This document shows, piece by piece, positions 1-37,850 of a stretch of DNA of 64,000 bases. Numbering within the stretch: position 1 is the first letter of the stretch; the number at the start of each line of letters is the position of its first letter. The stretch covers positions 2,601,062 to 2,665,061 of the forward strand of contig CAWGZV010000002.1 in assembly GCA_963827155.1 (NCBI GenBank). Reading direction: 5' to 3'. The DNA is from an uncultured Chloroflexia bacterium (GTDB taxonomy: Bacteria; Chloroflexota; Anaerolineae; Anaerolineales; UBA4823). The notes under the pieces were generated by a model, which was given only the letters and a program-made list of their open reading frames with translations, was not told the DNA's origin and made no database searches. The translations under genes were made by a program, and so were the position numbers.

Positions 1-3000
1 CTGTGAAATCCACATATTGAAGCGAAAGCTCTCGAGTCACCGGAGGTTCCCCTAAAACTAAAGCCCGGTAATTCTCTTCCAGTTCCCTGAAGAAAATGTT
101 CATAGACCACAGGTCAGTAATAATGTGGTGGATGACAACCAGAAACAAGAACCGGTGGTCTGATAAATGAATCAGGACTACCCGCAGAAGTGGATCGTCC
201 TCAAGATTAAATGGTTCCCGAATTTGGGACTGCAGGATTAATTGAGTTTGCCGATATTTTTCCGCATCCGGATATATACGAAGGTCAAACTGTTTCATTT
301 CGATATCACGAGATGCAGAAATTACCTGACGCGGTTCACCGTTTATCAATTTGAAGTTAGTGCGTAAAATCCCATGCCGCTGGACAATCCTTGATATGGA
401 CCTTTCGAATGACTGTGGATCCAAGCTGCCGCTCAATTGGAGAGAATAACTGAGATTGTAAGCAGGAGATTTTGGGTCAAGCTGCTGAATAATAAAAAGC
501 CGCTGCTGCGCAAATGACAGGGGGAATGCATCCGAAGTTTTTTGGCTTTCTAATGCATCCTGGAGGCGCGTATTTTCGAGAAATGCAATCAGCTCAGACT
601 TCCTTTGAACGACAGCATCCTTGATGGCTCCTGTCATCACCGCCGGTGGAGCGCTGAATTTGAGCTTGCCTTCTTCAAGCCAGAGGTGGATTCCCGCGGA
701 ATACAAAGTGGTTAAGAAAGCAAAGACTGAACTTTGCTGGTCTATCTGAAGAGAAATCTCCGCGGCAGACTTCGAAAATGCATACTGTTCTTTGACTGTG
801 TCCGAAGATTCTAGCTGCCCAGCTAAAATCTCAAGCAAGATCTCCGCTCTGGCTTCGATTTCCGCAGATCCGTCTGCAATCAAGCGGATCTGATCCACAA
901 AATCTGCCAGATTGGGGGATTCGATCAGGGTTCCAAATGGAATTTCTATTGAAAGCAGGTCATTTAAACGAGCAATCAGCCGGATTGCGAGCAGAGAGTG
1001 ACCCCCAACATCGAAGAAATGATCCCGCATATCCATAGATTTCAAATGCAGGATATCGGCCCAAACATTCGCCACTAATCGCTCCAAAGCGGTCTGAGGC
1101 GAGTGTAAATCCCTGCGAGTTTCCTCATCTTTTAATGATACTAACAGTGCAGAGTAGTCGACCTTTCCATTCGAGGTAATTGGAAGTTTATCGATGACTA
1201 CAAAAACAGAGGGGATCATATAATCCGGCAACTTAGACCGAAGGAAATTTCTTATCTCCCCTTTTGAGAATGGAGCGCCTGGTTCAGGGATTATGAAGGC
1301 AATCAGGCTCTGTTGGAGCTGATCGTTCGATTTGGATTAAATCACCACAGCCAGCTTTATTGTGGGGACTGCTGATAGAATCTGTTCGATCTCGCCTAGC
1401 TCAATCCGAATCCCGCGTATCTTCACTTGTCTATCTGCCCGACCGATAAATATAATCTTCCCATCTGGCAAGTAACTGGCAAGGTCGCCGGTGCGGTAAA
1501 GACGCGCTCCCGGATTTGCTGAGAATGGATTTGGCAAGAAGCTTTCAGCAGTCCATCCGGGCTCGTTCTGATAGCCAACAGCAAGCCCATCTCCACCGAT
1601 ATACAATTCTCCGGTCAATCCCACTGCGACGGGTTGAAGAGCTTCATCCAGGATGTAGACCTGCACATTATCGATTGGATGACCTATGGGAATTACCTGT
1701 GGAAGATCAGTTTTTTCACAGAGAAAATGAGTCGCATCAATACAGGCTTCGGTTGGACCATAGAGATTATGCAACGCAGCATTTGAAATCGTGAGAAAAT
1801 CCTTTGCGAGCTCATGGGACATTACATCCCCACCACAAAGCACATGCCGGAGGGTTTCACACTTCTGTAATTCTTGCAAATCAACCAGCATTTGCAGCAG
1901 TGATGGGGTGATATTCAAGATCGTAACCTGATATTCGATTATTGCCCGATCCAGACCTTTAAAATCTGGCTCAACCCCACCAGGCAGTAAAACGAGTGAG
2001 GCACCATTAAGCAGCAAATCGAATATTTCTCCTAAGGCAACATCAAATCCAAGTGAAGCGGATTGAAGAAAAACATCATCGGATTTAACATCAAGCAGCC
2101 GTTTCATCCAAAATGCATGATTAATCAGGGACCTTCGTGAGATGATAACGCCTTTAGGATCACCGGTTGAGCCTGATGTGTAAATCACATAAGCCGGGTT
2201 TTTAGAAGAAATTGCAAGGTTTGTGTCTTCTGGACTGCAAGCCTCAATCTCGCGAGCATCTTGATCGACGAGAATTCTGCGCTCAACATTTATATTAATT
2301 TGATCATTGTGAACGCGATCCGTAATAAGGGTGGTAATCCCGGCACGGCTGGCGAACGAAAATACACGCGAACTGGGCAACTTTGGATCCAAAAGCAGAA
2401 AAGCCCGACCTGATTTCAAAACAGCTAAAACAGCTACGATGAGCTCGGGGGAGCGCTCCAGGTAAACTCCCACGAGCACTGAAGGATTACTTCTGTTCGT
2501 CCCCAGATAATCCGCAAGTTGATTCGCGCGTTTATTCAAATCGGAATAGTTGAACGTTTCTTCGGTGCTTACAATCGCCACTGCATTTGGAGAGAAATGA
2601 GCCCGATCCTCAAATCCTTTTAATATGTAATTTTGGTCCGAATAAGGTCGATCAGTCCGGTTCCATTCGACAAGAATCTGATCTCTGCTTGAACTTGAAA
2701 GCAAGTTCAGCTGCATGAGCGTTTGGTGCGGATTCGCGACGACTTGTGCTAGCAGTTCAAGATAAGAACTCGCTTATCCATTCAACGGTTGCCTTCTTGT
2801 AGATTTGGGTATTGTAGATAAATTCCCCCCTCAGCGAACCGTTAATCTGGGTGAATTCGAGGCTTAAGTCATAGCGAGCATAGGTTTGTTCATAAGAATA
2901 CGGCTCAACTTTCAATCCAGAAAAAGTTTTTTGGCGCTCAGGAAGGTTTTCAAAATTGAATAGGATTTGAAAAAAAGGGGGGCGGCTTAGATCTCGATGG

Positions 3001-4154
3001 AAAGGCACCACATCAACGATTTTTTCAAAAGGAATATCCTGGTTAGAATATGCTTCGAGCGCTTCATCACGCACTCGATGTAATAGATTGGAAAATGTTG
3101 GTCTTCCTGAAATATCGAAGCGAAGGACCAATGTATTGATAAACAAACCGATCAGGTTCTCAGTTTCAATATAGGTGCGACCAGCAATAGGCGTTCCAAT
3201 CACAAAATCCGTTTGGTTGGTTATCCGGTGGATCAAAGCCACGAACCCGGCTAACAACACCATGAAAAGTGTGGCATTTTCTGAAGCTGCCAGGGTTTTT
3301 AATAAAGGCACCATGTCGGCAGAAACGTCGAAAGTGTGGGCTGCGCCTCGGCTGGCATATATGGATGGGCGTCGAAAATCCGGGGTCAGATCCAACGGTG
3401 AAGGAAGATTTTCCAGCTTATGCTTCCAATAATCCAACTGATTATTTAGAGCACCACTCTCAAGCCGATCACGCTGCCAGGCTGCAAAATCGGCATATTG
3501 AATCCTTAAGTCTGGTAATTGGGCGGGATTTCTGCTCACTAATCCGTTATATACCGCGCTCAAGTCCGCCAGCAATACGCCTTCTGACCAGGCATCGAAG
3601 GTGATGTGGTGAAAGACCAATACCAGAATATGTTGATTTTCTGTAAGATGGATGAGACTGGCTCGCATCAGTGGGCTGCAAGTGAGATCGATCGGGTTGA
3701 TCACCTGCTCGTTAACATATTGATTGGCGGAGTATTCACGCTGATCCGCGTCCAGCCCACGAAAATCCACATCGATAAGGGAAAGCTGTTCTGGTCGCGC
3801 GATTTGCTGTAAAGGTTCCCCAATATCACTTCTCAGCCGGTAACAGAGCGCCTTGTGTCTGCGAACAACCGTGAATAATGCAGCCTCCAAATTCGATCGA
3901 TCAAGAGCTCCGGTCAAGCGAATGACAACAGGTCGATTGAAGAGCCCATGGTGAAGATCGAACTGGCTTAGAACCCATAATCCTTCCTGGGCAAAAGAGA
4001 GAGGAGCAAATTCCTGTCGTTTCCGAACCGGGATGGAGGTTGGTCGCGCACTTAATTCCAGCGCTTCGCTCAAACGCCTATCAAGCGCCGCACGCCTGGC
4101 AGGAGAAAGATCCTTGCTCAATTTTGATGAATGAGGCTTATCTTCCAAGTTCAA
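1..4154 (-). CDS. NRPS, partial (runs off left edge): C-A-T-[TubC_N-like]-C; split by a frameshift (~2775) and an in-frame TAA (1337-1339)
   Basis: C domain HHITFDAWS. Removing one A in TGGATAAGCG (~2775) joins it to the A domain (YTSGSTGDPKG, YGPTE, YRTGD). Hand translation past TAA 1337-1339 stays open in the same frame to base 1: LPDYMIP, NGKVD, PCP FFDVGGHSLL, then LYSAGIHLWLEEGKLKFSAP, then C domain PLSFAQQRL...HHIITDLWS. Confidence 0.9.
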
Positions 4155-4163
4155 TTCGCTTGT

Positions 4164-6030
4164 TTAATATGTCTGAAAATCCTGATTTTCATCCATCTTT
4201 TCTTCCACTTCTTGCAGGATAACTTGTTCCAGGTACAAAGCCTGTTCCGCAATTGTCGGCTCTCTAAAGATCGTTCCCAAAGGTATTTCCAACTGAAATA
4301 CCGATCGGATGCGCGCGAATTAATCGGGTCGCGAGCAGAGAATCTCCGCCACTAGCAAAGAAATTATCAAAGATCCCAATCCATTCGGAATGCAGAACCT
4401 GCTTCCAAAGATTCACCAACGCTTGTTCGGTCTGAGTTCGAGGCGCTTGATATGGAGGGTTAAGATGGGATTTGAGTTTTTCCGCCAGACCGATTCGCTG
4501 GAGCTTGCCTGTGGGTCCCTTTGGGATCGAATCCAGGATTATCACCAATGACGGCGCTTTTTGGGCTGCCAGGCGGTCGAGAGCATAATCCCGCAGCTCT
4601 TTTTCACTTATGAGTGATCCTGTGCGAATTACAACGGCTGTCGCCACATCTTCTCCCAGGGTTGGATGAGGGATTGCAAAAGTCACCGCCTGGGCAACCT
4701 CTGGATGGTCGAGGAAAACCTCATCAACTTCACGAGGGGCGACCTTCTCACCACCTCGGTTTATCATCTCTTTAATCCGGCCGGTGATAAAGAGATAACC
4801 ATCCGCATCCAGATAACCTTCATCTCCTGTTCGAAACCACCCATTGAAAAACGCGGCCTGACTTGCCTCGGGATTGTTGGCATAGCCCGACATCACGTTT
4901 CTCCCTCGGATTACAATCTCGCCGACTTGATTCGGATTAACAAATTTTTCGCCCTCGTCCAAGATTGCTATCTCAGGACCGGCAGGTAAGCCCACCGAAC
5001 CAGGTTTACGCACCCGCGGTGGGAGGGGATTGCTAGCCATCTGATGTGCAGCTTCGGTCATACCATATGCCTCGATAACAGGCGCCTTAAATACTTGTTC
5101 AAGATCAGCCATCATCTTAGGAGGCAGTGACGCCGAAGAAGAACGGATCAACCGCAGTGGATTGGCCAGAATGACCTGAAAATATGATTTGGCTGCTGCC
5201 AGAACGGATTGGTGCATGGTTGGAACAGCCGAATACCACGATGGATGGAATTCTTCAATCCAGGGGAAGAACTGATCCGCCTGGAAACCAGGGGTACATG
5301 CGACACTGGCGCCAGCCATCAGCGAAGATAAGACGACAGCCATTAACCCGTGAATATGGAATAAGGGCATTACATTCAAGCAGCGATCTGCCGGGGTAAG
5401 TGTAAGGGTCTGGACGATATGGCTAGCTGAAGCGATGATATTTGCTTGAGAGAGCGGGACCATCTTGGGTCGGGAAGTGGTTCCAGAAGTATGCAGGACC
5501 AGTGCGATGTCAGCGGGATTTGCGAATCCGGTGTTATCAGCGGACACGGCAGAATCTGATTGCAGCTCAAAATTAATCCTCCCCGGATTTGAATTGGGGA
5601 CCAATTCGACAACGGGAATTTTTCTGCTTTCTGCAACCAGCCGGGCTGGGGAAGCAGTCTCAGCCTGGATAACAAGCGCTTTGGCATCCAGATCTCCCAG
5701 GTAAAAATCAAATTCTGACATGCTGTAAGCAGGATTCAAAGGCGCGCTGGTAGAACACGCGGCAATCGTCAGGAAGGCTGCGGCTAATTCTGGGCCATTC
5801 GGCAGGACGATTGCCACTCTTTCCCCACATCCCACGCCCATTTGGTTCAAGGATCGCTTTACGGCATCCATCTGCTGCGCCAACTCGGAGAAGCTCATCA
5901 TACGCTGCTGCAACCCGAGGAAGGCTATTCCATCCGGCGTCTTGCCAGCTCGCATCTGGATGAGTTTCGCAAGGGTATCGATCGTATTCGGGACATCCTT
6001 GTTTAAGTCCACCTCAGAAAAAACTCCCAT
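4164..6030 (-). CDS. Acyl-CoA/AMP ligase (oxalate-CoA ligase-like) fused to a C-terminal carrier protein; frameshift ~4317
   Basis: LHTSGTTSRPK, PLFHIHGL, WYSAVPTMHQ, RSSSASL, EAYGMTEAAHQM, KGPTGK, then FFASGGDSLL. Removing one C at ~4317 gives RLIARIRSVFQLEIPLGTIFREPTIAEQA and a stop at 4164-4166, 10 nt before the next start. Confidence 0.85.
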
Positions 6031-6060: not shown

Positions 6061-9000
6061 TTAATCGCGTTTCTGATCAAATTGATCGGGAGGATCCTTG
6101 ACTTGAGAATCAGGAAGGTTTTGAATTTCTAATAGAAATTTTGCGATTTTTTCAATTTGATACGGATCTGGGGAGTGAGCCAAAATCGCTTCAGAAAATT
6201 CAGCTACACTCGGAGATTCGAACAGCAGTCGAGGATTGATCTGGAGATTGAAAAGCTCAGTCAACCTGTAGATCATCCTGATCGCCAAGAGCGAATGTCC
6301 ACCCAGGTCAAAGAAACTGGCGTAAACATCCTGGACAGACCTGCCAAGCAAATCGGACCAGATATGTAAGAGCACTTTTTGGAATACGGTCGGCTGCCCA
6401 TTAAACTCCGAAGGGCGCTGGACTTCGGGTGAGGTAAAACTCGGCAGCAAACGACGATCCACTTTTCCATTCGGGGTCATCGGTAGGGCTGGGATGAAAA
6501 TAAAGACACTCGGGATCATATAATATGGAAGCCGAAGCATCAAAAAATCTTTCAGCTCATGCGTAGAGCCAAATTTTTCTGGGATGAAAACCACATAGGC
6601 AATTAATCGCTGATTATCAGGCAAATCTTCAGCGATTCTCACTGCAGCTTGCCTGACTGCTGAATGGTCTTCAAGCGCTTTCTCAATCTCCCCCAGCTCC
6701 ACCCGAAAACCCCTCAGCTTCACCTGCTGATCGATTCGACCTAAGAAATCCAAATTTCCATCTTGGAGGAAGCGAGCCGAATCGCCAGTACGATACATAC
6801 GCTCGCCAGCACCGTCAAAGGGGTTAGGAATGAATTTTTCGGCAGTCAATTCTGGGCGCTTAAGGTAACCCTGAGCAAGACCATCGCCCGCATTGTAAAG
6901 CTCGCCAGCCGCGCCAATGGGAGCTAAGTTCAACCAGCGGTCTAAAACATAGACGCGTGTGTTTGAAACGGGAGTCCCAATTGGGATGACCCACGGCGAA
7001 TCCTCAATATCATTGACCTGGTAGCAAGTCGTCCAGGTGGTATTTTCGGTAGGGCCGTACCCATTGATCAGTCGTTTTGGTCCACCGGCTCGATTGATTT
7101 TTCGAAGGATATCCGGTGAAGCCACCTCCCCACCAAAGATTACTTCGCGGATCGATTGAAAAGCATGCGGGGCGAAGCTAGCGATGTGATTAAAAAGCGA
7201 AGTGGCAATGCAAAGGACGTCGATTTTCTCAGTTTTGATAAATTTCTCGAACAGGTGTGGGATAAGTAAAATATGTTGGGGAACTATGAATAGAGTTCCT
7301 CCGTTGAGCAGGCTTCCCCAGACCTCAAAAGTAGATAGATCAAAGGAGGTGTTTGTCACCTGCGCTACCCGGTCACCTCTTTTGATTTGAAGATAATTAT
7401 TATTTAGAACTAACCTGTTCACTGACAGATGAGAAATCCCGATCCCCTTCGGCTTTCCTGTTGATCCCGAAGTATACATGACATAAGCAAGGTGCTGAGG
7501 TGTGATCTCAACATCCAGATGAAGAGGGCTCTCTTGTTCAATTTGAGCTCGATCCTGATCAAGGATTATGACCGGCGACTTCACCCCACTCAATAAATCC
7601 CGGTAAGCATCCTGGCTGAGGATGAACTCTGGCACCAGAATCAGTAATCATATAATTCAGACGTTCGAAAGGATGGCCAGTGTCCAGTGGGAGATAAGCT
7701 GCACCTGCCTTCAAAACTGACAAGAATGAAGCGACTGCATCCAAAGAGCGGTCCATACATACGCCCACAGTATCCCCAGGTCGCACCCCCGACCTGGTAA
7801 GGAATCTTGCGAGTTGATTGGTCTGCCGGTCCAATTCTTCATATGAAAAACTCTTAGGAGGTGGGTCTTGATAGGTTTGAGAACCTGGTAAATTATCTGG
7901 ATCACAAACAGCCAAAGCGTTGGGGGTATTTTGGACCTGTTCTGTGAATATCTCGTGGATGCATAAATCACGAGGAAAATTTGAAAAAGTTTTATTCCAG
8001 CGATCCAATAATAAAGCCTGTTCTTGATCGCTAATAAACTTGACTTGAGTAATTTTCTGCTGAGGATCGGCAATCAGCGCCTGGATGAGATTCAAATAAT
8101 GCTCGATCATCCTTTTCATAGCAGCTTCTTCAAACAAATCCGTGTCGTATTCCCATACCAGGGTAATATCTCTGTCTTTGGACACAGCATGTCTGCCGAT
8201 TAGCTGCTCGGCACGTGGGATCACGACAATATTCAAGTCAAATTTCGCGGCTTTATTCTGACGGTACTCAAGACTGCCATGAAGTTCGGGGAACTCGAGC
8301 TCAGGGACAGGAGAATCATGAAAGCTGAATAGAATTTGGAAGTATGGGTTGTAGCCTGGATTTCGATCGGGTTGAAGTATCTGCACCAGCTTCTCAAAAG
8401 GCATGTCCTGATGGGCTGTGGCTTCCAGGATTGTCTCTCGAACCTGGTCGAGAGCCTGAATAAAACTGAGATTCCCTGAAAGATCTGTTCGCAGCAGGAC
8501 TGTATTCACAAACATCCCGATCAGAGGTTCGAATTCGCGCAGCCTTCTATTTGCAAAACCAGATCCAATCAGCAAATCTTCCTGACCGGTGTAGCGCATC
8601 AGCAGCACTTTAAATGCTGTAAGGAATGTGGCAAACAGGGTCACGCCGTTCTTCAAGCTGAAAGATTTAGCTTCTCGATAAAATTCTTCCCCCAGGCTCA
8701 CCTGGATCGAGGCTCCACGAAAATTCTTTTGAGGCGGTCGTGGGTGGTCTGTTTGAATGGGTATGGTCGTGGGGGCTGCTTGCAGCCGTTTTCGCCAATA
8801 TTCCACCTGTCTATCAAGGAACGAACCCCGGAAAACCTCTCTCTGCCAGACCGCATAATCAGAAAACTGAAATCGAAGCTCAGGAAGTGGGGAAGGATTT
8901 CCATCCAGAAAAGCTCGATAAAGGGCTTGAAACTCCCGCATCAGAACCGCAAATGACCATCCATCATGCACAAGGTGGTGCTCGTAATGCACCAACAAAT

Positions 9001-11341
9001 GCTCCTTATCGGAGGATTTGAGAAGCCTCCATTTCACCAAAGGAAGTTGGGTAATATCCAAAACCTCAGAGAAATAATCCGCAAGCAGGCGATCTTCTTG
9101 GATTCTTTGCTGATCGGATGCAAGCTGGCTTAAATCAATAATTGGGATTTCTACATTCCAGGGGGCGTGAATGACCTGGATCGGCGCTCCTTCATGTTCA
9201 TGGAAAGTTGTCCGATAAATCTCATGTCGTCGGATGATCTCATTGAATGCCCAACAAATTGCGTCGTAATTCAGTTTGCCATAAAGCCGAATAGAAATCT
9301 GGTAGTTATACGCAAGGTTCTCTGGCTGCATCTTGTTTAAAAACCATACTTGTTCTTGGGCATAACTCAAAGGCAAATGATGACGATCTAAAGCACGTTT
9401 TAAAGGAGGGAATTTGACCTGATCCTCAGAATGCTGTAAGCGCTCAATTTCTTTCGCCATACTGGCAATTTCAGGCACCGAAAATATATCCGTGATCGGG
9501 AGCTCAACCTGATATCGTTCGTAAACACGGGTGAGAACCTGAGCTAACGCGAGCGAATGCCCACCTAATTCAAAAAAAGAATCATGGATTCCTATCGGAA
9601 AAATACCAAGAACCTGGGACCAAATCTCAGCCAGCACTTTTTCAATTTCGCTGATCGGCAGGATGTATTCTCCTTCGCGATCTTTGGGTGAGGCACTTAA
9701 TTTGATTAGTTCAAGACGGTCCAGCTTTCCACTCGTTGAAACAGGCATGGCGTTCAAGAAATGGAAGTCTGTGGGAATCATGTAATCAGGCAGTTTCTCA
9801 GATAAATAGCGCCGAAGCTCTTGTATAGAAATTTCCTGGTTGGCGTGAAGCACCAGGAATGCCACCAGCCTTGGCTCTCGATGAGCGCCGATTTGATGGC
9901 TGGAATCGTGAAAGACCACCGCGGCCTGCCGTAAGGCGGGGTGCAAATGGAGGCAGTTTTCGATTTCCCCTAATTCCAGCCGAGAGCCGCGGATTTTTAC
10001 CTGAAAATCGACTCTTCCAAGAAATTCGATGTTGCCGTCGGCGAGGAAGCGAGCTAGATCACCGGTGCGGTAAAGCCGGCCGCCCTGGTCGCTGAAAGGA
10101 TCAGGCAGAAAACGCTCTGCCGTGAGGGCAGGACGATGAAAATATCCTCTGCCAAGACTATCCCCGGCAAGATAAATCTCACCAACATCCCCGATAGGGA
10201 CCAACTGCAGTCGATCATCCAGAATATAAGCTCTATTATTCGCAAATGGTTTCCCGATTGGTACGATTTGCAATCGGCGATCCTCTGGGATTCTGTAGGA
10301 AATGGTATCGATACAGGCTTCCGCCGGACCATAAATATTTATTATTTCTACATCAATCAACTCCTTTACCCGGTTGACTAATTCAGGCGGAAGCGCTTCG
10401 CCACCGAAAAACAACCAGCGAAGCTGACCGCAAACCTTGAAACGAGGGTCGTCCAGCATCACCCGCAATAACGAAGGGACCATCAGGAGGGCTGTGATGT
10501 GATGCTCGGCTATCATCTGCAGGATATGTCCCACATCGGATGTGCGTTTGGATGAGATGATTACCAGCTGTGCGCCCCACAACAATCCTGCACAGAGCTC
10601 CCATTCAAACGTATCGAAGCCTAAAGGCGCCTTTAGAAATATGCGATCATTTGAATCAAGGGGAAAAGCCGACTGCATCCAGTGTACATGGTTAGACAGA
10701 CTGCGATGCGTGTTTATCGCGCCTTTCGGCTGTCCAGTTGAGCCTGAAGTGTATATAAGAAACGCTGGATTCTCCGGGTGTGTGACGTTTATTGGATTTT
10801 CGATGGATTCTTTTGAGATGGATCCCCATTCGGAATCGATGGAGATCACTTGAACAGAGTTGAGATTGATCTTTTCAAGCGAATTTTGGATTGCGAGCAA
10901 TATTCGAGTTTTCGAATCCTCCAGCATGAACTCAAGCCGCTTCAATGGGTAGTCTGGATCGAGCGCAAGAAATGCGGCGCCAGCCTTCCAAATTGCGAGG
11001 ACTGCAATCACAAGCTCAAGTGATCTATCGAGGTGGAGTCCGATGATCGATTCTGGACCGACCCCAAGTTTTATTAAGTAATGGGCCAGCTGGTTAGCAC
11101 GCTGGTTGAGATCGCGGTAGGTTAAGGATCTTTGTCGAGGCGAGCCCCAAGTCTCAACGACCGCAATCTGCTCAGGCGTCCAATAAACCTGCTCTTCAAA
11201 GAGCTGGTGGATCAATTTATCATGGGGATATGGAGTATTCGTCGCGTTAAATTCGAACAAAATCCGCCGAATTTGAGAGTCCTCCACAGGGTTTTTGATC
11301 GGACCTATTCCGGGATTATTAAAATCACCTTCGGAAACCAT
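6061..11341 (-). CDS. NRPS A-T-C-A-T (~1760 aa repaired); frameshift ~7631
   Basis: ORF 7559-11341 has A (YTSGSTGQPKG), T (FFELGGHSL), C (EHHLVHDGWS) and the start of a second A. Removing one C in GGTGCCAGAG joins it to ORF 6061-7635 (YTSGSTGKPKG, YGPTE, T FFDLGGHSLL). RBS GAGGAG precedes ATG 11341. Confidence 0.92.
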
Positions 11342-11835: not shown

Positions 11836-13218
11836 TTATTGTTTTGGGATAGAAATTGTAAAAAGGGCTCCCTTGCCTGGCTCGCTCTGCAAGCGAATAG
11901 CCCCACTATGTGCTTCGACGATCGATTTTGCTATTGCCAACCCCAGGCCAGTCTCGTTATTATACGTACGGGCGCGGTCGGCACGATAGAAGCGGTCGAA
12001 CACAAAGGGCTGCTCCTCTACAGGAATTCCAATTCCATCATCCTGGACTTGGAGCTCCACATCGTGGGGTGAGCCAGAGGCACCAAGGACGATATTTCCA
12101 TTTGCAGGAGTGTAGCGAAGCGCATTCGTCATCAAGTTGCCCAGCACCTGGTTCATCCGTTCCGGATCAACGAAAACCTCTGGCAAATTGGGCTCGATTC
12201 GCAGCTCCAGATTGATTCCTTTTTGCTCACACAACGGGCGATAAGCAGATGCCGATCGTTCGAGAATCACCCCGGGAGATATCATCTGGGGGAAAAGCAC
12301 CAACTCCCCCGCGTCTGCAAGTGACAATGTCCGTAGATCCTCGATTAATCGATTTAACAGACCAGCCTCTTTATGCATGATTTCAAATATTTCTGGGGTC
12401 CCTTCCAACTTGGCATCGCTAAGCGCTTCGGTGTAACCCAGGATTACAGTTAATGGAGAGCGCAGATCATGGGCGATATCGGCAGTCATTTGACGGCGTG
12501 CCTGGGTTGCTTTGGCCAGGTCTGTGCTCATCTTGTTGAATGAATCAGCAAGACCCCCGAGCTCGTCCTTGGATCGGATTAGCACTTGAGTTCCCAATTC
12601 ACCGGCTGCTATCGCCTGGGTCGCGTGAGTCAGATCGCGGATTGGCCGAGTCAGGGTACGCGCCAGTGCCACACCTAAAACCAGGGCGATAATCGATGCC
12701 AGGACTGCACTGATTAGAAGCACCTGGTTAATCGCCGATAGAAAATTCCTCTCAGGTCCACCTATGTCTCCGGGCGACAGGCGCGGACTGATGGTCAACC
12801 AACCTACCAGCTTTCCATCCACCTCCAACGGGAGCCCTTGAGAAATTTCGTCCTTTGTCGCAAGCCCACCTGGCGGAAGTTCTGAACCTGTAAAGACAAT
12901 GATTCGGTTGGCGTCTACCAGCATCAGCGGCAGCGGACGACTTTCCGGTGGTCGCGGATTACTCGACATCTTCTGTGTATCATCTTGAATACGCCGCAGC
13001 CGCTCCATCTGGTCCATGACCTGATCAACCCCATTCCAGGATCCATTCGAGATGTAGAATTCGGTCAAAGCCGTGACTAAATCGCGCTGGTACTGGTTGG
13101 ATAGAAAGCGGTTAAATTCAGTGTTGGTTCGCTGCTGAATAAATAGAGCAGAGAGCACAGCCCCAGTCAGGCTGACAATCAAGAACGCGAGAACGAGCTT
13201 AACGGTTAACGACCGCAT
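11836..13218 (-). CDS. HAMP-domain sensor histidine kinase (BaeS-like)
   Basis: Two TM segments, HAMP, H-box ADIAHDLRSPL, N-box NLMTNALRY, DDGIGI, GLGLAIAK. Confidence 0.93.
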   Translation of the reverse strand: MRSLTVKLVLAFLIVSLTGAVLSALFIQQRTNTEFNRFLSNQYQRDLVTALTEFYISNGSWNGVDQVMDQMERLRRIQDDTQKMSSNPRPPESRPLPLMLVDANRIIVFTGSELPPGGLATKDEISQGLPLEVDGKLVGWLTISPRLSPGDIGGPERNFLSAINQVLLISAVLASIIALVLGVALARTLTRPIRDLTHATQAIAAGELGTQVLIRSKDELGGLADSFNKMSTDLAKATQARRQMTADIAHDLRSPLTVILGYTEALSDAKLEGTPEIFEIMHKEAGLLNRLIEDLRTLSLADAGELVLFPQMISPGVILERSASAYRPLCEQKGINLELRIEPNLPEVFVDPERMNQVLGNLMTNALRYTPANGNIVLGASGSPHDVELQVQDDGIGIPVEEQPFVFDRFYRADRARTYNNETGLGLAIAKSIVEAHSGAIRLQSEPGKGALFTISIPKQ

Positions 13219-13224
13219 GGATTT

Positions 13225-13932
13225 CTATACCCCTCGAGATTCAATATCTTTCAACGCGGTGAAGCGGTAGCCAGTACCATAAACCGTCTCAACATATCTT
13301 GGTTCCGAAGGATCCACTTCAATTTTTGAGCGCAAATTTCGGACATGAACATCAATGGTGCGCTCATAGCCTTCAAATGCCGCACCTTGCAGCCGTTCAA
13401 GCAGCTCAAGACGAGTGAAAGCTCGCCCTGGAGCAGCCATCATCACAGCAAGCAGATCGAATTCTGATGGGGTCAGGTCGATCAAATCGTCATTGATCAT
13501 GATGAGATGACCATCTCGATCGAGAGTAATATCACCGGCGCGCAGGATCTGGCTTGGTTTTGCTTGTTTTTCGACACGCCGCAGGACCGCCCGGATGCGT
13601 GCAGTTAGCTCGCGTGGGCTAAAAGGTTTTGTGACAAAATCATCCGCGCCAAGTTCGAGGCCAGTCACCTTGTCTGATTCCTCAAGCCGCGCAGTTAGAA
13701 CGATAATCGGAGCATCCGCCTCGCGGGTGTAAGACCGGATAAACTCATATCCGCTCATTTCCGGCATCATCAGATCAAGAACGATAAGATCTGGCTTGGC
13801 TTGTCGGGCGACGAAGAGTGCTTCTTTTCCGTCGCTGGCTGCAACCACATCAAAACCTTCCTGGTTCAAATATGATTTGAGTAGTTGGCGAATTTCTATT
13901 TTGTCATCGACTACAAGAATTTTCTTTGACAT
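13225..13932 (-). CDS. OmpR/PhoB-family response regulator
   Basis: ILVVDD, LDLMMP, GADDFVTKPF, and wHTH RTIDVHVRNLRSKIE...VETVYGTGYRF. Start set at ATG 13932. Confidence 0.95.
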   Translation of the reverse strand: MSKKILVVDDKIEIRQLLKSYLNQEGFDVVAASDGKEALFVARQAKPDLIVLDLMMPEMSGYEFIRSYTREADAPIIVLTARLEESDKVTGLELGADDFVTKPFSPRELTARIRAVLRRVEKQAKPSQILRAGDITLDRDGHLIMINDDLIDLTPSEFDLLAVMMAAPGRAFTRLELLERLQGAAFEGYERTIDVHVRNLRSKIEVDPSEPRYVETVYGTGYRFTALKDIESRGV

Positions 13933-13973
13933 GTGCACCCTAGACCACTGGGTCAAATTATCCTTCAAATTTC

Positions 13974-14005
13974 AGTATAGTGGAAATTTGTTAGGAAATT
14001 ATGAA
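13974..14005 (-). promoter_or_regulatory. Promoter with tandem OmpR-type boxes upstream of the response regulator
   Basis: Minus strand: TTCATA (14005-14000) and CTAACA (13994-13989) at 11-bp period, 9-nt gap, then -10 TATACT (13979-13974). Confidence 0.6.
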
Positions 14006-14057
14006 GATGTGATTTAGACATTATTGGGACAATCTTGGCTGCGACAAGATTAATGAT

Positions 14058-14085
14058 TATGGGCGCGAGGTGTCTCGCGCCCATA
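14058..14085. terminator. Hairpin, probable terminator of 14114-14899
   Basis: Perfect 12-bp stem TATGGGCGCGAG-GTGT-CTCGCGCCCATA just downstream of the stop. Confidence 0.7.
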
Positions 14086-14113
14086 GTAAGGAAATATCGG
14101 ATTTCGGATCGGC

Positions 14114-14899
14114 TTATTGGCCTGCCTCCTGAGGGGGCTGAGAATTCGAATTCGGCATTCCCATTCCATCTCGGGGGCCACCATGCCGGCCAGGACCAGG
14201 CATCCCACCACCGAAGAGACCGTGTCCGGCTTTCTGGCTAAGAATTTGATCGGCAATTTCCTGGGTGATCACGCCGTCATCCACAGCTTGCTGGACTGCT
14301 GCTTTATAGGCATTCTGCACTGCTTGCTGGAAAGTTTCCGCACTCAACCCCTGCTCTTCGATCAATGCTGGGATTGATTTTCCAGCTTGAAGAGATGACT
14401 TGAGTTCGTCGGAGGATATCCCGAGCGCTTCTGCCATCAGCACATCTCGATCCAGATAGGGTTTCAGCGCCTGCCTGGCTTTGATCAAGGCGGCTTGTTC
14501 TTCGGTTATCTCGCCATCGGCAATGGACTGTTCCAGCATCGTCTCATCGGCTTTCTGTCGAGCTGCTTGAAGCTCTTCTACCGAAATTCCCAATGCTTCA
14601 GCCAGATACTTGTCATATTCATCGTTTCCGCCAAATCGGGGCTTATCCATTCGGCCAAACCCAGGAAATCCACCCGGCATCTGTCCGTCGCCAATGGGAG
14701 GGTGAAATCCTAAATCGTTGGGTTGTCCTCCGGTGCCGCCAGACTGGGCGGGATCAACTGGAGGCTGCGGCGTGACATTCTGCGCCTGAGCAATTTGCGG
14801 TAAAACTGCCACAGCACCTGCAACTAACATACCTGCGATCACGACCGCTATCACGAGCTTGACCAGCGGTCTCCAAACTTTCTGATCAGTTTTCTCCAT
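14114..14899 (-). CDS. Exported/anchored helical protein of unknown function
   Basis: N-terminal hydrophobic signal, Gly/Pro-rich flanks, internal repeat (LAEALGISVEEL / MAEALGISSDEL), RBS AGGAG. Confidence 0.8.
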   Translation of the reverse strand: MEKTDQKVWRPLVKLVIAVVIAGMLVAGAVAVLPQIAQAQNVTPQPPVDPAQSGGTGGQPNDLGFHPPIGDGQMPGGFPGFGRMDKPRFGGNDEYDKYLAEALGISVEELQAARQKADETMLEQSIADGEITEEQAALIKARQALKPYLDRDVLMAEALGISSDELKSSLQAGKSIPALIEEQGLSAETFQQAVQNAYKAAVQQAVDDGVITQEIADQILSQKAGHGLFGGGMPGPGRHGGPRDGMGMPNSNSQPPQEAGQ

Positions 14900-14971
14900 A
14901 AACGTACTCCTTTCGAACCTGTGTAATTGTTGAGATTGGGTTTCATCAATTCGACTTCCTCGAGCATTCTC

Positions 14972-15003
14972 AGGATATCAAAAGCCTGTTCAGAAAATGT
15001 TAG
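14972..15003 (-). promoter_or_regulatory. Promoter with tandem OmpR-type boxes upstream of 14114-14899
   Basis: Minus strand: CTAACA (15003-14998) and TGAACA (14992-14987) at 11-bp period, 9-nt gap, then -10 TATCCT (14977-14972). Same geometry as at 13974-14005. Confidence 0.6.
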
Positions 15004-15148
15004 GATGTTATTTCGGGATTATTGGTTTTCACACAAAATCGAAGGTGTGGTTGTCATTTTGATGTTTGGGCTTTTAAAATTGAAAAGCCTATAAAGGTAT
15101 AATCATCTCAAATTCCATACCCATCAAATAATTCGGCAGGAAAATCAA

Positions 15149-15694
15149 TTGAACGTCCAAAATTACCCTTTCGATGCTGTTGAAGAAGCCTCTTTGCAAG
15201 ATGGTCGGAAGGTTGTCCTGCGTCCTATCCGACCAGATGACGCACCTCGCCTCCAACAATTTTTTTTGAGGCTTTCGAAAGAATCCATTTATATGCGCTT
15301 TCTCCAGGCTGCATCCGTCTTGACAGATGAGCAAGCTTATAACCTGGCAAACGTAGATTACCTGACAAAAATGGCGTTGGTTGGATCGATTGAAGAAAAT
15401 GGCGGACAACAGATCTTGTGTGTGGCGCGATATGCAATCCTCGACCGAGATCCGCCAGGAGGGGCAGAAGCAGCAATTGTGGTGCGCGACGATTTTCAAA
15501 GATGCGGGTTAGGAAAAATCTCGATGGATCGACTGGCGCGTTATGCCCAAAAACACGGTGTCCGATATTTCACTGCGACTGTTCATACGACAAATCTCAA
15601 GTTGTTAAGTTTCATCCAAAGTTCTGAGTTAAGCTTCGAAAAAGAAGTCCTGGAACCAGGAGTTTGGGAGATCCGGATCCTGCTGGGTGAGTGA
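15149..15694 (+). CDS. GNAT N-acetyltransferase (Pat/PatZ-type GNAT domain, stand-alone)
   Basis: LRPIRPDDA, SIYMRF, NVDY, AEAAIVVRDDFQRCGLG. Confidence 0.85.
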   Translation: MNVQNYPFDAVEEASLQDGRKVVLRPIRPDDAPRLQQFFLRLSKESIYMRFLQAASVLTDEQAYNLANVDYLTKMALVGSIEENGGQQILCVARYAILDRDPPGGAEAAIVVRDDFQRCGLGKISMDRLARYAQKHGVRYFTATVHTTNLKLLSFIQSSELSFEKEVLEPGVWEIRILLGE

Positions 15695-15989
15695 GATTGT
15701 CGATAATCAGGAATCAAGTTTGGGAAATTTCGCTCGAACCTGCGATCGAGGCAGCTTCACCAAGCTCGTTTAGTCTTGAGCATTCAGAAACCAAGGCCAG
15801 TGGTTAAATGGTGAAACGATGGGGAGCGGCTTTTCAGGCATTTACAACAATGGCGATTTAGAAGAAGGCTGCCTCCTGGCAGCCAATCCTGGTGATGATG
15901 CATAAATCAAAGGAGCTGGATTTAAACAGCTTCTCAAGCTTGATATGGATCGAGCGGTATCCCTGTGAAAAGGCTCAGCGAGCTGACAA

Positions 15990-18248
15990 TCAGCTATTTT
16001 CGGTGAATTCTTCGTGAGCATCTCGCTCTATCAAGACTTCACGATCGCGGCCGCCTCCCACGGCTGGACCGATCACCCCCAACTCTTCAAGTTCATCGAC
16101 GAGGCGTGCAGCCCGGGGATAACCTATCCGGAGCCGCCTTTGAAGCATAGAAGCGCTGGCACGCTGGTTGGTTCTCACAATCTCGATAGCTCGCTCGATA
16201 AGATCATCTTTTTCAGAAGAAATCTGGTCCTGATTGACGGTCTCTTCCCAGGGCGGCAATTGGTCTGTCTGAGCCTGAGGCTCTGACCAAGCTTTTTGCC
16301 AGAACGTGATCGCTCGCTCGACTTCCTGATCGCTGACCATCACACCCTGCAGCCGGATCGGTGCAGATGCTTCAGGTGGGATGAAAAGCATGTCACCATG
16401 TCCAAGAAGGGATTCGGCCCCATTCGTATCTAGAATCACGCGCAAATCAATAGATGATGCTACCGTGAAGGCGATTCTGGCTGGAAAATTCGCCTTTATA
16501 AGACCTGTGACGACGTCCACTCCAGGCCTTTGGGTGGCAACAACCAAATGGATCCCGGTGGCACGCGCCATCTGCGCGAGTCTCACGAGATTGTGCTCGG
16601 TTTGATCCGGGGCAGACATCATCAGATCAGCTAATTCATCGATCATCACCACAATATGAGGAAGGGGATTCTCACCACGCCGCCGGCGGATTTTTCGGTT
16701 GTAGGAGTCGATATTGCGGGAATGGGAGGACTCAAGAACCTTATAACGTCGATCCATTTCCATCACAGTCCACTGCAGCACCCCCAAGATCCGAATAAGA
16801 GCTGTCTCTACCTTGCCATACAAATGAGGCAAGCCGTTGAATCTCACCAGCTCAACCATTTTAGGATCAATCATTACCAGGCGCAGGTCATCCGGGGTGT
16901 TGTTCATGACCAGACAGGTTGTCAGTGCGGCGATGCAGACTGATTTTCCCGAACCGGTCGTGCCGGCGATGAGCAAGTGGGGCATGCGAGCAAGATCGGC
17001 AACGTATGGGGCACCTGAGACATCCCGTCCAAGCGCTATCGCGAGAGGCGAATTGTTCTTGCCGAATTGCTCCGATTCCATGATCGGTCGCAGACGGACG
17101 ATCGAGGAGCGAGCATTCGGGACTTCGATACCGACGTACGGGCGCCCAGGCACCGGAGCCTCGATTCGTAATCGCTCCGCAGCCAGCGCCAACGCAAGAT
17201 CGCGGCCAAGCGCCGATATTTGAGCTACACGTACTTTCTGGCGCGCCGCATCACCATTTTCCCCGGCTCCATCTTTATCGAGGTATCCAGGTTCAACTGC
17301 AAATTGGGTGACTGTCGGTCCCACCCGAAATCCAACGACTTTAGCAGGGATTCCAAACTCAGCCAGCGTCTTTTCAATGAGCCCAGCGGTCAAGTTAATA
17401 TTCCTCTCGTCTGGTCGGTGGAACTGCTCATTAACCAGCAAATCTAGACCAGGCAGACGGGTATCTCGTGGGGGGAGCTCGGCGGAGGGCTTATCTTCAT
17501 AATCTATGCGAAATGTCTTCCGAAATTGGGGCGGTAAAGAAATTTTTCGGCGGTTTTGAACGGAGGCCTGGGATTGAATTGGACTCGATGAAAGGGGAGA
17601 CTCACTTACCACAGGCTCCGGCTCAACGAACCTGGAGCTGGCGGTTACCTTCGCGGCGCGGCTTGACCAGCGACCAACCGCCTGGAGCCATCCAAATGCG
17701 TAAGAAATTGTGAGCAGAAAGACTACAAAAACCAGTAAGATCATCAAACCACTATTGCTGAGCCCGATCGGTCGGATGAGAATTCGAAGCAGTTCCACCA
17801 GCCCCCAACCTACTCGTCCACCATCCAAACCAGCCTCTGCTCGGAACAGATCTGGTCCGCCAATCAGGGTAAGGAGGGCAATCGAGCAAAATGCTGCCAG
17901 CTCAAGCGAAAAAAGCCTAAGCCAGAAGTGGCCTCCCAAAGCAGGTCCTTCAGCCCGGCGCCGCAAGAGGATGATAGAGAACAAGATAGATCCAATGACA
18001 AACCACATACTCCCCCAACCAAACCAGAGACGGAGGGCGCCTGTCCACCAGTCCAATATCCCACCCGCAATTGCAGGAAATATCAAGCCCACCAAAGTGA
18101 TCAATCCCGCCGACATCAGGAAAACAGCGGCAATATCGACTGAAAAACGTTCGAAACGTGCCAGGAAATCGAGGACGGTGGAACTCGAACCTTCATTCAT
18201 CTTATCTTCAGGAAGATTTGAAAGCTGCTTGTGGGTTACCCTTGGCAT
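15990..18248 (-). CDS. ftsK: FtsK/SpoIIIE DNA translocase
   Basis: N-terminal TMs, PHLLIAGTTGSGKS, MIDELADLMM, HLVVATQRP, gamma domain ASASMLQRRLRIGYPRAARL. Confidence 0.97.
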   Translation of the reverse strand: MPRVTHKQLSNLPEDKMNEGSSSTVLDFLARFERFSVDIAAVFLMSAGLITLVGLIFPAIAGGILDWWTGALRLWFGWGSMWFVIGSILFSIILLRRRAEGPALGGHFWLRLFSLELAAFCSIALLTLIGGPDLFRAEAGLDGGRVGWGLVELLRILIRPIGLSNSGLMILLVFVVFLLTISYAFGWLQAVGRWSSRAAKVTASSRFVEPEPVVSESPLSSSPIQSQASVQNRRKISLPPQFRKTFRIDYEDKPSAELPPRDTRLPGLDLLVNEQFHRPDERNINLTAGLIEKTLAEFGIPAKVVGFRVGPTVTQFAVEPGYLDKDGAGENGDAARQKVRVAQISALGRDLALALAAERLRIEAPVPGRPYVGIEVPNARSSIVRLRPIMESEQFGKNNSPLAIALGRDVSGAPYVADLARMPHLLIAGTTGSGKSVCIAALTTCLVMNNTPDDLRLVMIDPKMVELVRFNGLPHLYGKVETALIRILGVLQWTVMEMDRRYKVLESSHSRNIDSYNRKIRRRRGENPLPHIVVMIDELADLMMSAPDQTEHNLVRLAQMARATGIHLVVATQRPGVDVVTGLIKANFPARIAFTVASSIDLRVILDTNGAESLLGHGDMLFIPPEASAPIRLQGVMVSDQEVERAITFWQKAWSEPQAQTDQLPPWEETVNQDQISSEKDDLIERAIEIVRTNQRASASMLQRRLRIGYPRAARLVDELEELGVIGPAVGGGRDREVLIERDAHEEFTENS

Positions 18249-18412
18249 ATCCGATAATTATAGCATTCAGAATTACTATAAACGGATTGTGGGATTTGTC
18301 CAGGCACCTGCAGGATACCCCTTTAGAATCACGCTGAGCGAAAAAGCTCACATTATTCTCAATAAACAGCTGCTTAAGCTCCGATTTGATAATGAGCTTG
18401 TAAGCGATTGGA

Positions 18413-19387: not shown

Positions 19388-19429
19388 TATAAAGGATGGA
19401 TCCGCCAGTGGAAGTTGGTAATGCTGAAA

Positions 19430-19732
19430 CTATACGGTTGGGCGACTGATGTGCAGGACAACTTTTCCGATCACCCAGCGTCTCGGGATAAGACCAAACT
19501 GCCGGCTGTCGGTACTATCCGGATTCTCACCTACGACGAATAATTCTTCGCCGTCCGGGGTAATTGTTTCCAATCGTTTTACTAATCTGCCGTAGACAGG
19601 GTGGTGGAATACTACCAGATCTCCAGCTTTAAGCTTGCGCAGAGAAAAGGCGGCTTTAAAAACGAGGATGTAATCGCCCGGATTTATGGAAGGTGCCAGG
19701 CTTTCACCTGACACCTTCATCAATCGGATCAT
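19430..19732 (-). CDS. sodX: Nickel-SOD maturation protease (S24/S26-like)
   Basis: VSGESLAPS, GDLVVF, LVKRL, GENPDSTDSRQFG; overlaps the sodN stop by 4 nt. Confidence 0.9.
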   Translation of the reverse strand: MIRLMKVSGESLAPSINPGDYILVFKAAFSLRKLKAGDLVVFHHPVYGRLVKRLETITPDGEELFVVGENPDSTDSRQFGLIPRRWVIGKVVLHISRPTV

Positions 19733-20232: not shown

Positions 20233-20331
20233 TCTTTCCTCCTGATGATTATGTTGAATTGGATAGTGAGCTATCCAGAACTTATTCGACCATAGGTCCG
20301 TTATGCCCCAATTTAATCTTTCGACCGCGTC

Positions 20332-20360: not shown

Positions 20361-20367
20361 GATTCTG

Positions 20368-35187: not shown

Positions 35188-37850
35188 TCAGCAGGTTTCA
35201 AACAACAAGTCTGATAGGAGCTCTGCAACTCGACCAACCTGAGGCTCCCATAACAAGGCATCATGATGACCATCGACCTCAATAACCTCAATACGTTCTC
35301 CTGCGACGGCTCCCCACCCTAATAACGGATCGGGTACCAAGCCAAACGGCTGACGTCTGGCTCGGAATAATACCAATCGGCCTTTAAATCTAGGAGGAGT
35401 CAAGGCATACCGGTTGGCGATCTTATTGGCCTTACGGACTCGCTTAAGATCATCAGGAAGCGGGTTGCGGATTAGTTGGTAGCTGTTGGAGATCCGCACA
35501 CTCAGCCTGCGGCCCATACTCGGGATCCGAAGGGATAAATATTCGCCTGCACCACGCAAGTTTAACGATTTGATATTAACTAGATGCCGCTGCAATTTTT
35601 GAATCTTGCGGATCAGATATATTTTGCCTCGCTTCATTCCTGGCAAACGTTTTGGGTAGTTCGGGCCATAAGTATCAAACATCACCACAAGCGCAGTATT
35701 TTCTCCCATATCTGCAAGCTGTTGGGCGATCTCATATGCCACTTTTCCCCCAAACGACGAGCCGCATAAGGTATAAGGTCCATGAGGTTGAATTTTCAAG
35801 ATAGACGCGAGATGAAAACCCGCGATCTCAACGACATTCGTCAGCGGCTCTTCTTGACCGCCAATCCCTTTTGATTGCAGGGCATAAAGGGGCTGATTAC
35901 TCCCCAAATGTTTCGATAGATCGTGATAATTTAACACATTCCCACCCACACCTGGCAAGCAGAAAAGGGGCGGGAATTTCCCATGCGGTTGAACAGCGAC
36001 CAGCGGCGACCAATCTGCCACCCATTGTTCATCCTGGAGAAGCTCAGACTGTTGAGCTACGGTCGCAGCATTGAAAATTATGGAGAGCGGCAGTTTTTTC
36101 CCAAGCATCCGCTCTATCTCAACAAATATGCGCATTGCCTGGAGTGAATCGCCTCCGATCGCGAAAAAATCGTCATAGATCCCGATCGGATGGCAGCCAA
36201 TCACCCTTTCCCAGATTTTTATCAGCCTAGCTTCAAGATCATTGGTCGGCTTCGCATATTTTTCATCACGAGCGATCGCTGCCTGGGAGGGCGCTGGCAG
36301 CGCGGTTCGATCAATTTTTCCATTCGGGTTTCGAGGGAGCTCATTAAGGAATACGTATTGTGTCGGCAGCATATGTGCTGGCAGAAGGAGGGATAACTCT
36401 CTACGCAGATCGCTTATGCTCCGGGAGTTTCCCGGATTCATACAGAGGTAAGCAGTCAATCGCATGTTGCTGCCTGAAATCAGTTTGCCCGGCAATTACA
36501 GCCGCTTCGCGAACACCGTTAATATGAAGCAGCGATGATTTAACCAGCGGAAGCTCAACTCGATACCCGCTGATCTTTACCATTTCATCTTTTCTACCAC
36601 GATACTCCAAAAGGCCATCCTGGCGCAGCACGCCCATATCGCCGGTATAAATCAGACGGTCCAAACCACCTTGTGGGTCAGGCTTGAATTTCTCGTTCTC
36701 AATTTTGGCTTCACCCCAATATCCACTCGCCACGCTGCGCCCTTTGACCACAATTTCGCCAATTTCACCAGGCGGTAATCCTTGGCCGTTTTCATCGACG
36801 ATCAACACCTGTTTGTCGATTGTCGGATATCCGATTGGCAGATAATCATCATCCAATATTGTGTCTTGGGTTATGAAATAGGCTGATGATGAACCAGCTT
36901 CACTTGAAGCAAGATGATGCTTTATCAGACAATCTGGCGAGATGTGAGATCGAAACATCTTTAAAGCACCAATATTTACCCTTTGTCCAGCCAAGGTAAC
37001 CAACCGCAAGTCACGTAAAAAATCGTCAGGCTGGAGAATCTCGACAAATTGATGAAACAACGAGACCGGTGGGGAAAATATGTTGATGCGGTTCTCGTTA
37101 AGCCAATCATAAAGGCGCCCGATTCCCCATTCTTTAACCGGGTAAAAGTAAATGGCTGCGCCCGAAAGCAAAGCGCTGAAAATCGTGGAGAGGGCTGCCG
37201 AGAAAGCGAATGATGACAGGTGTGCCTGACGGCTGCCTGGTCCAAATCCATATGGGCGGTACTGCAAGGCGCCGTGTTTTTTAATAATCCCCTTCGGATT
37301 CCCCGTGGAGCCTGAAGTGTAATAGAGCGCTGCAATCGTGTCTGCAGTGATGGGTATGTCAGGGTCCGAGTCCGAAACGCCTGGATCGAGTTCATCAATA
37401 TTAATCACAACAGATTTATCTGGGCAGATACTATTCGCTAGCTCGAGGCTCGATGTATCGGTGAGAATTTTTCGCAGACCCGCATCTTTAATAATCAGAT
37501 TCGAGGTTGGCGGGTGGGTAATCCCGGTCCAGCGGGACAGCAATTTTGCCGGCTTTGACAACTGCATAGATTGCAAAGATTGAATTCGGGGTGTGGCCAA
37601 ATATCAGGCCTATGGTCTCCTGCTCCGAACCAGGAACCAGAAGGTACCGGTTCGCAATCCGATTAGTGAGTCGGTCAAATTCCTGGAAAGTGAACTCCTG
37701 GTCACCGTGATTTATTGCTATTTGGTCTGGATTTTGCTTGACACGAACACACAATCGATCTGGGATCGATTGGGCGGGATCGAGCTGCTTGAAATTCTCG
37801 ACTTCACTGACCAGATTCCCGCGGTAAATCGGATGAATCTCAACTTTCAT
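35188..37850 (-). CDS. Monomodular NRPS-like A-T-TE enzyme (~885 aa repaired); frameshifts ~37502 and ~36478
   Basis: Three ORF pieces join by single-base removals. YTSGSTGNPKG, YTGDMG, GRKDEMVKISGYRVE, PNGKIDR, T FFAIGGDSL, TE PLFCLPG...GSSFGG...GHH. Confidence 0.85.

Follow-up and report, generated by a model that had tools for sequence, protein, structure and literature searches.

A ligase–carrier didomain of the AAE3/Pcs60 clade as candidate oxalate-loading starter of a nonribosomal peptide synthetase line in an uncultured Chloroflexota bacterium

We analysed a stretch of 64,000 nucleotides (hereafter the window; assembly GCA_963827155.1, contig CAWGZV010000002.1) from an uncultured freshwater bacterium of the Anaerolineales (Chloroflexota). 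We focused on gene B, which encodes a didomain made of a ligase and a carrier (LIG-T) and belongs to a nonribosomal peptide synthetase (NRPS) line. In our favoured reading, to which we give as a whole a probability of about 0.55, gene B is a regular starter module, from which the chain assembled by genes C, D and E of this line would receive an N-oxalyl cap. A preliminary description of this DNA had placed the didomain between an upstream A-T-C-A-T protein (A, adenylation; T, thiolation, i.e. carrier; C, condensation), here gene A, and a downstream protein starting with a C domain, here gene C; both flanks were found as claimed, and both are frame-broken in the assembly.

The ligase domain is virtually certain, from its sequence, to be a member of the AAE3 clade. 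Its best matches among solved structures were Arabidopsis AAE3 (5ie0; 428 bits, E = 3.8e-127), Lathyrus OCS (6qjz; 400 bits, E = 1.3e-118) and yeast Pcs60 (8aff; 365 bits, E = 6.7e-108). The next family after these oxalate-CoA ligases was FadD13 (195 bits, E = 2e-56), below which came NRPS A domains, 4-coumarate ligases, malonyl-CoA synthetases and luciferases; no fatty acyl-AMP ligase (FAAL) was named among the best 60 structure matches. Compared with Arabidopsis AAE3 (AtAAE3), the ligase of gene B is 45.7 % identical over 494 residues and carries no insertion longer than one residue. FAALs are marked by a specific stretch of about 20 residues inserted into their N-terminal domain; an insertion of this type is therefore ruled out. 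Identity to the first A domain of the cluster itself is 26 %. The best NCBIfam model was that of the FadD7 family, with a score below its cut-off (404 vs 650 bits), so that no curated bacterial equivalog names the substrate of gene B.

A maximum-likelihood tree of the ligases (quick search, with the Shimodaira-Hasegawa-like approximate likelihood ratio test, SH-aLRT, as sole support) united the bacterial LIG-T and stand-alone ligases in one clade (SH-aLRT 99). This clade joined the eukaryotic AAE3/Pcs60 enzymes in a group of 87 rows (SH-aLRT 99), which left out four further ANL enzymes encoded by this genome as well as an NRPS A domain, the latter falling in the outgroup. The stand-alone ligases grouped in a single clade (94), which lay nested among the LIG-T proteins. 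The preliminary description had assigned the gene to the AAE3/Pcs60 type, as neither an NRPS A domain nor a FAAL, and had proposed phylogeny as the check; structure scores, tree and lack of insertion bear this assignment out. A FAAL or aryl-CoA ligase identity was ruled out by the bit scores, the tree and the missing insertion.

The oxalate pocket of AtAAE3 is formed by V215-H216, C288-S289, A313-M314, H319 and K500, among which S289, H319 and K500 contact oxalate, S289 and H319 being conserved only among oxalyl-CoA synthetases (PMC8905533). The counterparts in gene B, as counted from the AtAAE3 alignment and the motif positions, are I226-H227, S298-S299, G323-M324, H329 and K509. Read at AtAAE3 positions 214, 215, 216, 288, 289, 313, 314, 319 and 500, the pocket signature is HVHCSAMHK in AtAAE3 and HIHSSGMHK in gene B. 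All three oxalate contacts are kept in gene B, as well as in 32 of 33 LIG-T rows. The eight-residue pocket of gene B is identical to that of the characterised enzymes at 5/8 positions; the three differences (V215I, C288S and A313G) are nearly invariant in the bacterial clade, stand-alone enzymes included. HIHSSGMHK is the majority signature in the LIG-T and in the stand-alone groups (39 of 51 stand-alone bacterial rows), and no alignment column separated the two at the 85 % level.

All the motifs quoted in the preliminary description, GGDSL included, were found on the minus-strand gene (Table 1), within a raw open reading frame (ORF) of 588 amino acids (4264..6030, minus strand). The ANL core motifs of gene B are TSGTTSRPK, YGMTE, FRTGDEG, GRIKEMINRGGEK and PKGPTGKLQR, and the catalytic A10 lysine is present. 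Against Pfam, the raw ORF matched AMP-binding (241 bits) and AMP-binding_C, and PP-binding was absent; once base 4317 was removed, PP-binding was recovered (44.5 bits) at residues 536-600 of a 621-residue protein. In the three-frame translation, the frame shifts at about 4317, after ...GGDSLLATRLI, and the carrier goes on in another frame as ARIRSVFQLEIPLGTIFREPTIAEQAL...DFQTY. The TAA at 4166-4164, from which the preliminary description counted the gene, can be reached only by reading through this frameshift. Its statement that the ligase is fused to a carrier thus stands when base 4317 is ignored; in the raw assembly the carrier is broken, and the frameshift had gone unreported. The fusion to a carrier domain makes self-loading, and not CoA ligation, the probable activity of gene B.

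The didomain is common: the best 120 database matches (55-73 % identity) were all related ligases, and all but one had a PP-binding domain; most were about 600-640 amino acids long, and variants also contained hexapeptide repeats, a C domain or a thioesterase. When one genome per GTDB species was scanned, at least 595 loci were found, the best 80 of which are covered by the locus counts given here. Carrier fusion was found in 28 of these 80 (29 with L060, whose T domain is encoded by the following ORF), from Acidobacteriota, Gemmatimonadota, Verrucomicrobiota, Planctomycetota, Cyanobacteriota, Chloroflexota and other phyla. The remaining 52 loci held stand-alone ligases of about 510 amino acids, mostly from Pseudomonadota. 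Among 40 kin genomes, only three had a homologue (two of five congeneric species and one further genus in the family), i.e. one fused LIG-T-C, one LIG-T and one stand-alone ligase; accessory biosynthetic genes are usually scattered in this way.

A gene of the PanE/ApbA family (about 325 amino acids) was located at most 600 nt downstream, on the same strand, in 39/52 stand-alone loci versus 0/28 LIG-T loci. PanE2 of Methylobacterium extorquens is an oxalyl-CoA reductase (PMC8411744, PMC12686821); given this role and these neighbours, the nearest stand-alone relatives look like true oxalate-activating enzymes. Next to fused loaders, OXC-like enzymes dependent on thiamine diphosphate (ThDP) follow LIG-T in L035, L040 and L052, and a lyase of the PEP_mutase/ICL family adjoins it in L023 and L035. 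The superfamily of these lyases includes oxaloacetate acetylhydrolase, a maker of oxalate. The preliminary description had proposed oxalate or a similar short diacid; oxalate indeed appears as the best-supported substrate when the kept contacts, the PanE2-type neighbours of relatives with the same pocket and these occasional lyase and ThDP neighbours are considered together; gene B probably carries oxalate.

Some of the related loci showed further arrangements. In L097 (8001-10304), the loader is fused to hexapeptide-repeat acyltransferase repeats within a glycosyltransferase locus; L094 (6587-11280) has a LIG-T-TE protein (TE, thioesterase) between a gene of the class I/II aminotransferase fold and a phosphopantetheinyl transferase gene; and in L020 (4179-8693), a Ktedonobacteraceae contig, the loader is followed by a lantibiotic-dehydratase-like protein. 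In two Rhizomicrobium loci (L048, 8687-16611; L051, 1967-8643), a stand-alone ligase and a PanE-type gene lie beside a C-A-T-TE gene with a very divergent C domain, which may represent a CoA-dependent version of the same capping chemistry.

Gene C begins 9 nt past the stop codon of gene B, and is continued by gene D (C-A-T-C-A-T) and gene E (C-A-T-C-A-T-TE), which ends with the terminal TE. Genes C to E comprise six C and six A domains, and the whole line eight A and seven C domains. As the domain count of genes C to E exactly fits an acyl-hexapeptide, the unexplained element is gene A, not the loader, whose position in mid-cluster results from the extra A-T-C-A-T gene lying upstream. What had been described as a second initiation module in mid-cluster is therefore better viewed as a normal starter for genes C to E (six C domains for six amino acids and one acyl group).

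The survey of homolog neighbourhoods, also proposed beforehand, showed that the fusion usually stands directly before C-A-T modules (LIG-T then C-A-T in L009, L012, L089, L093 and L096) or is fused to them (LIG-T-C-A-T(-TE) in L011, L026, L033 and L042). L011 belongs to a cultured cyanobacterium, Calothrix sp. CCY 0018, and encodes LIG-T-C-A-T-TE as a single protein. In most relatives LIG-T is a simple starter for one to three modules, and the idea that the acid caps a chain fits this comparative architecture. A tree of 58 C domains placed the first C domain of gene C in a clade of twelve rows (SH-aLRT 98), i.e. nine C domains directly after LIG-T in other phyla, that of the C-A-T protein abutting LIG-T in L091, one of L083 and the window's own, so that the loader has a dedicated partner type of C domain. 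On this domain evidence, gene B is very probably the NRPS starter for gene C.

Among the A domains that follow the loader, Stachelhaus-type codes vary, some being serine-like (as in L011), glycine-like or diaminobutyrate-like and one, DTEDIGTVVK, recurring. Since they vary, they give no clue to a single product. The A domain of the first module of gene C has the code DVGNLGAIDK, which presumably resembles that of ornithine. A docking domain of TubC_N type (57 bits) was also noted inside gene C (about 575-721, minus strand; residues 171-219 of ORF 2..1231), between a carrier and the next C domain and with no stop codon before it. The counterparts of gene C in L089 are separate proteins, which suggests that genes were fused or a stop codon was lost.

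The favoured mechanism can be outlined as follows. The ligase domain of gene B would adenylate oxalate, and the oxalyl group would pass to the phosphopantetheine arm of its own carrier instead of CoA. The first C domain of gene C would then join the oxalyl-S-T to the amino acid held on the first module of gene C, genes C, D and E would lengthen the chain to six residues, and the terminal TE would release an N-oxalyl peptide. The substrate, the direct N-oxalylation and the product are what we infer from clade membership, contact residues, carrier fusion, the loader-to-C architecture and the clade of partner C domains, all of which were observed.

Several points weigh against this reading. The differences V215I, C288S and A313G make a near relative of oxalate (glyoxylate, glycolate, oxamate or malonate) possible as cargo, and the oxalate link of the stand-alone relatives rests on gene neighbourhood and family name, not on PanE2 orthology. 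When the window's genome was searched by tblastn with the proteins of related clusters, no PEP-mutase/ICL-type lyase was found with their lyases and only a distant enzyme, about 1.76 Mb off, with their ThDP enzymes, so that the locus has no oxalate source; with neither gene nearby, the cluster of the window is of the plain type. Gene A has no role in the favoured model, and gene B is frameshifted as assembled. Finally, neither an NRPS loader of the oxalate type nor an oxalyl group bound to a carrier was found described in the literature searched, in which few subscription papers were covered.

The role of gene A is central to an alternative that is possible but unlikely, in which the oxalyl-S-T caps the free N-terminus of the gene A dipeptide and yields a linear N-oxalyl octapeptide, either by a second use of the first C domain of gene C or through a high intrinsic reactivity of oxalyl thioesters. 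The eight A and seven C domains fit such a product, which would leave the loader without a C domain of its own, and oxalyl thioesters are described as highly reactive (PMC10353032). Gene A is kept in L089, the closest cluster, whose loader shares 66 % identity with gene B and in which the same four-gene order, with A-T-C-A-T, LIG-T and C-A-T in succession, recurs; L091, an Anaerolineales cluster, also has the A-T-C-A-T gene, but in a permuted order, which speaks against the octapeptide. A single protein of L062 (8099-15067; Gemmatimonadota) has the order A-T-LIG-T-C-A-T, i.e. amino-acid and oxalate-type loaders before one C domain. Genes A and B share the same type of acidic docking tail, and the matching N-terminal head (LSPAKRALL type) occurs only in C and E, so that both donors may address one acceptor; these tails and heads fit several partner orders, and the role of gene A is not settled by them. 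Nothing shows a C domain acting twice, however, and the first C domain of gene C groups with those of clusters where LIG-T is the sole starter, a role that suffices without gene A. The same two initiation lines (genes A and B) with one TE, in a gene set kept in L089 and L091, would suit the bridge suggested in the preliminary description, in which oxalate links two convergently built chains as an oxalamide. We consider it very improbable: the distal carboxylate is free after the first amide, no second enzyme to activate it is present in the locus, the pocket keeps the residues binding a free carboxylate, so that an N-substituted oxamate should not fit, and most relatives use LIG-T as the starter of one short chain. 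It is also unlikely that gene B loads another small acid as N-cap (e.g. glyoxylate, glycolate, malonate or pyruvate). Both the three pocket-lining positions that depart from AAE3/Pcs60 almost throughout the bacterial clade and the FadD7 match below cut-off leave room for such a cargo; against it stand the kept S289 and H319, said to be specific to oxalyl-CoA synthetases, the efficiency of LsOCS, which falls by some four orders of magnitude between oxalate and succinate, with malonate in between (PMC8905533), and neighbourhoods of relatives that point to oxalate metabolism.

The remaining alternative, that gene B and the whole NRPS line are a decaying pseudogene in this strain, was assessed from the frame breaks. 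About six frameshifts and one in-frame stop occur across the 28-kb line as assembled: gene A is split near 7559-7635 (extra base at 7625), the break in gene C falls near 2716-2757, between the C and the A domain (extra base at 2767), and past the window the line reaches the terminal TE with about three further frame changes. Near-identical DNA was present in public metagenome runs, X1 having 78 % of the sampled words; a 3,094-base X1 contig differed from the window by 12 letters and one gap. X1 contigs (and X2 contigs where covered) have exactly one base fewer at 2767, 4317 and 7625, and the in-frame TAA of gene C at 1337-1339 is CAA in both X1 and X2 (G for A at 1339). With these four corrections (1339, 2767, 4317 and 7625), genes A, B and C become single-frame ORFs of 1759, 621 and 2309 amino acids. 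A separate minus-strand A-T-TE gene of the window (35188-37850), split into two ORFs (35188..36495 and 36401..37600), is probably intact too, as X1 contigs have one base fewer at 36477 and 37496 and an X2 contig likewise at 37496. All five coding indels relative to X1 lie in NRPS-type genes, whereas the other genes of the 20 kb from 14000 to 33900 have none, the only indels there (28780 and 29049) being between ORFs; this distribution would suit decay. Each of the coding indels nevertheless amounts to one surplus base, the contigs of 99.6 % identity are intact, and 6/8 of the differences (1339, 2767, 4317, 7625, 28780, 29049, 36477 and 37496) fall in or beside GANTC sites (contig version), although such positions make up 2.4 % of the window; a seventh falls in a run of T. 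Errors concentrated at a methylation-type motif and at homopolymers are typical of long-read consensus sequences, and the concentration at GANTC is what base-calling errors at a methylated motif produce. Decay thus appears improbable, and the frame breaks are, judging from these comparisons, highly likely to be assembly artefacts due to base-calling errors, for which reason gene B is taken as functional. As the X1 and X2 contigs come from a slightly different strain, they are no proof for this very strain.

Three side observations were made during these comparisons. The differences linked to GANTC suggest systematic errors at methylated GANTC, which would imply a CcrM-like methylase in the organism. 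One X1 contig lacks 69 bases at 16550-16620, inside ORF 15990..18248, i.e. an in-frame length variant between strains. At 39850-40083, contig depth in X1 rises to about 313, the surrounding depth being about 4-5, and many loose ends occur at 39865-39942; a short element common to many organisms or copies is indicated, perhaps a tRNA or another conserved RNA.

The coordinates of gene B, its domains and its neighbours are given in Table 1. A kinase and response-regulator pair similar to that found upstream of the NRPS line also flanks the related cluster L091.

Table 1. Position of gene B, its parts and the adjacent genes in the window
Feature	Position	Strand	Remarks
Gene C: C-A-T-(TubC_N-like docking)-C-A-T	1..4154	minus	2309 amino acids; runs off the window start
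Gene B: ligase-carrier (LIG-T) didomain	4164..6030	minus	621 amino acids with extra base 4317 ignored; ATG 6030-6028, stop TAA 4166-4164
Carrier (PP-binding) domain, residues 536-600	4230..4425	minus	attachment serine within GGDSL 4336-4350
Extra assembly base within carrier domain, shifts frame	4317..4317		absent from near-identical X1 contig
ANL ligase domain, AAE3/Pcs60 type, residues 1-525	4456..6030	minus	core motifs all intact
EAYGMTEAAHQM	5038-5073	minus	
RSSSASL	5125-5145	minus	
WYSAVPTMHQ	5209-5238	minus	
PLFHIHGL	5344-5367	minus	
Gene A: A-T-C-A-T	6061..11341	minus	1759 amino acids with extra base 7625 ignored; initiation line without release domain
Histidine kinase (HAMP-HisKA-HATPase) and OmpR-type response regulator	11836..13968	minus	upstream of the NRPS line

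Both ligase-carrier loaders and oxalyl-CoA synthetases are well known in their own right; what is new here is the ligase family and the predicted cargo of the loader. AAE3 (5IE0-5IE3), LsOCS (6QJZ) and Pcs60/FAT2 (8AFF) share with gene B (about 46 % identity) the fold, the ANL core motifs and the contact residues. These enzymes act as stand-alone proteins, and the CoA thioester that they produce serves oxalate breakdown or, in grass pea, the synthesis of beta-N-oxalyl-diaminopropionic acid (beta-ODAP), whereas gene B is fused to a carrier, lies in an NRPS line and shows the changes V215I, C288S and A313G. The stand-alone bacterial AAE3-like ligases are closer (56-62 % identity, same HIHSSGMHK pocket), but they have no carrier, their frequent PanE/ApbA neighbour (39/52) sets them apart, and their role is catabolic; the pairing with a PanE2-type enzyme corresponds to the path from oxalate through oxalyl-CoA to glyoxylate, as in Methylobacterium extorquens.

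The logic of gene B is that of the loaders of NRPS and polyketide synthase lines that are of FAAL-ACP (ACP, acyl carrier protein) or CoA-ligase type, in which a carrier receives an acid other than an amino acid from an ANL enzyme. In known lipopeptide loaders, the ligase-carrier is followed by a starter C domain that N-acylates the first amino acid. Gene B differs from the FAAL-type loaders in that it is not a FAAL and that its predicted cargo is a C2 diacid and not a fatty or aryl acid. In fumonisin biosynthesis, Fum10, a ligase related to AAE3/Pcs60, supplies a carboxylic acid to the carrier and C-domain pair of Fum14 (PCP-C, i.e. peptidyl carrier protein and C domain); this system is fungal, consists of separate proteins and esterifies a polyketide backbone with a tricarboxylic (tricarballylic) acid.

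A broader and tentative proposal, rather doubtful at this stage, is that carrier-bound oxalate is a general, so far undescribed building block in the secondary metabolism of bacteria. The loader, derived from oxalyl-CoA synthetase, would then feed NRPS lines, thioesterases, hexapeptide-repeat acyltransferases (in glycan loci) and OXC-like ThDP enzymes across at least 10 phyla, and in the window, L089 and L091 one C domain would serve two donors, giving a capped octapeptide or two products.

If the substrate of gene B is oxalate, the fused loaders would point to a large unexplored class of N-oxalyl (i.e. oxamate-ended) peptides, whose oxamate ends may, in our view, act as ligands of metal ions or as mimics of 2-oxoacids. 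The single-protein LIG-T-C-A-T-TE of Calothrix sp. CCY 0018 makes the question of the cargo directly testable. With oxalate as cargo, this family would open a new route from oxalate metabolism into secondary metabolism.

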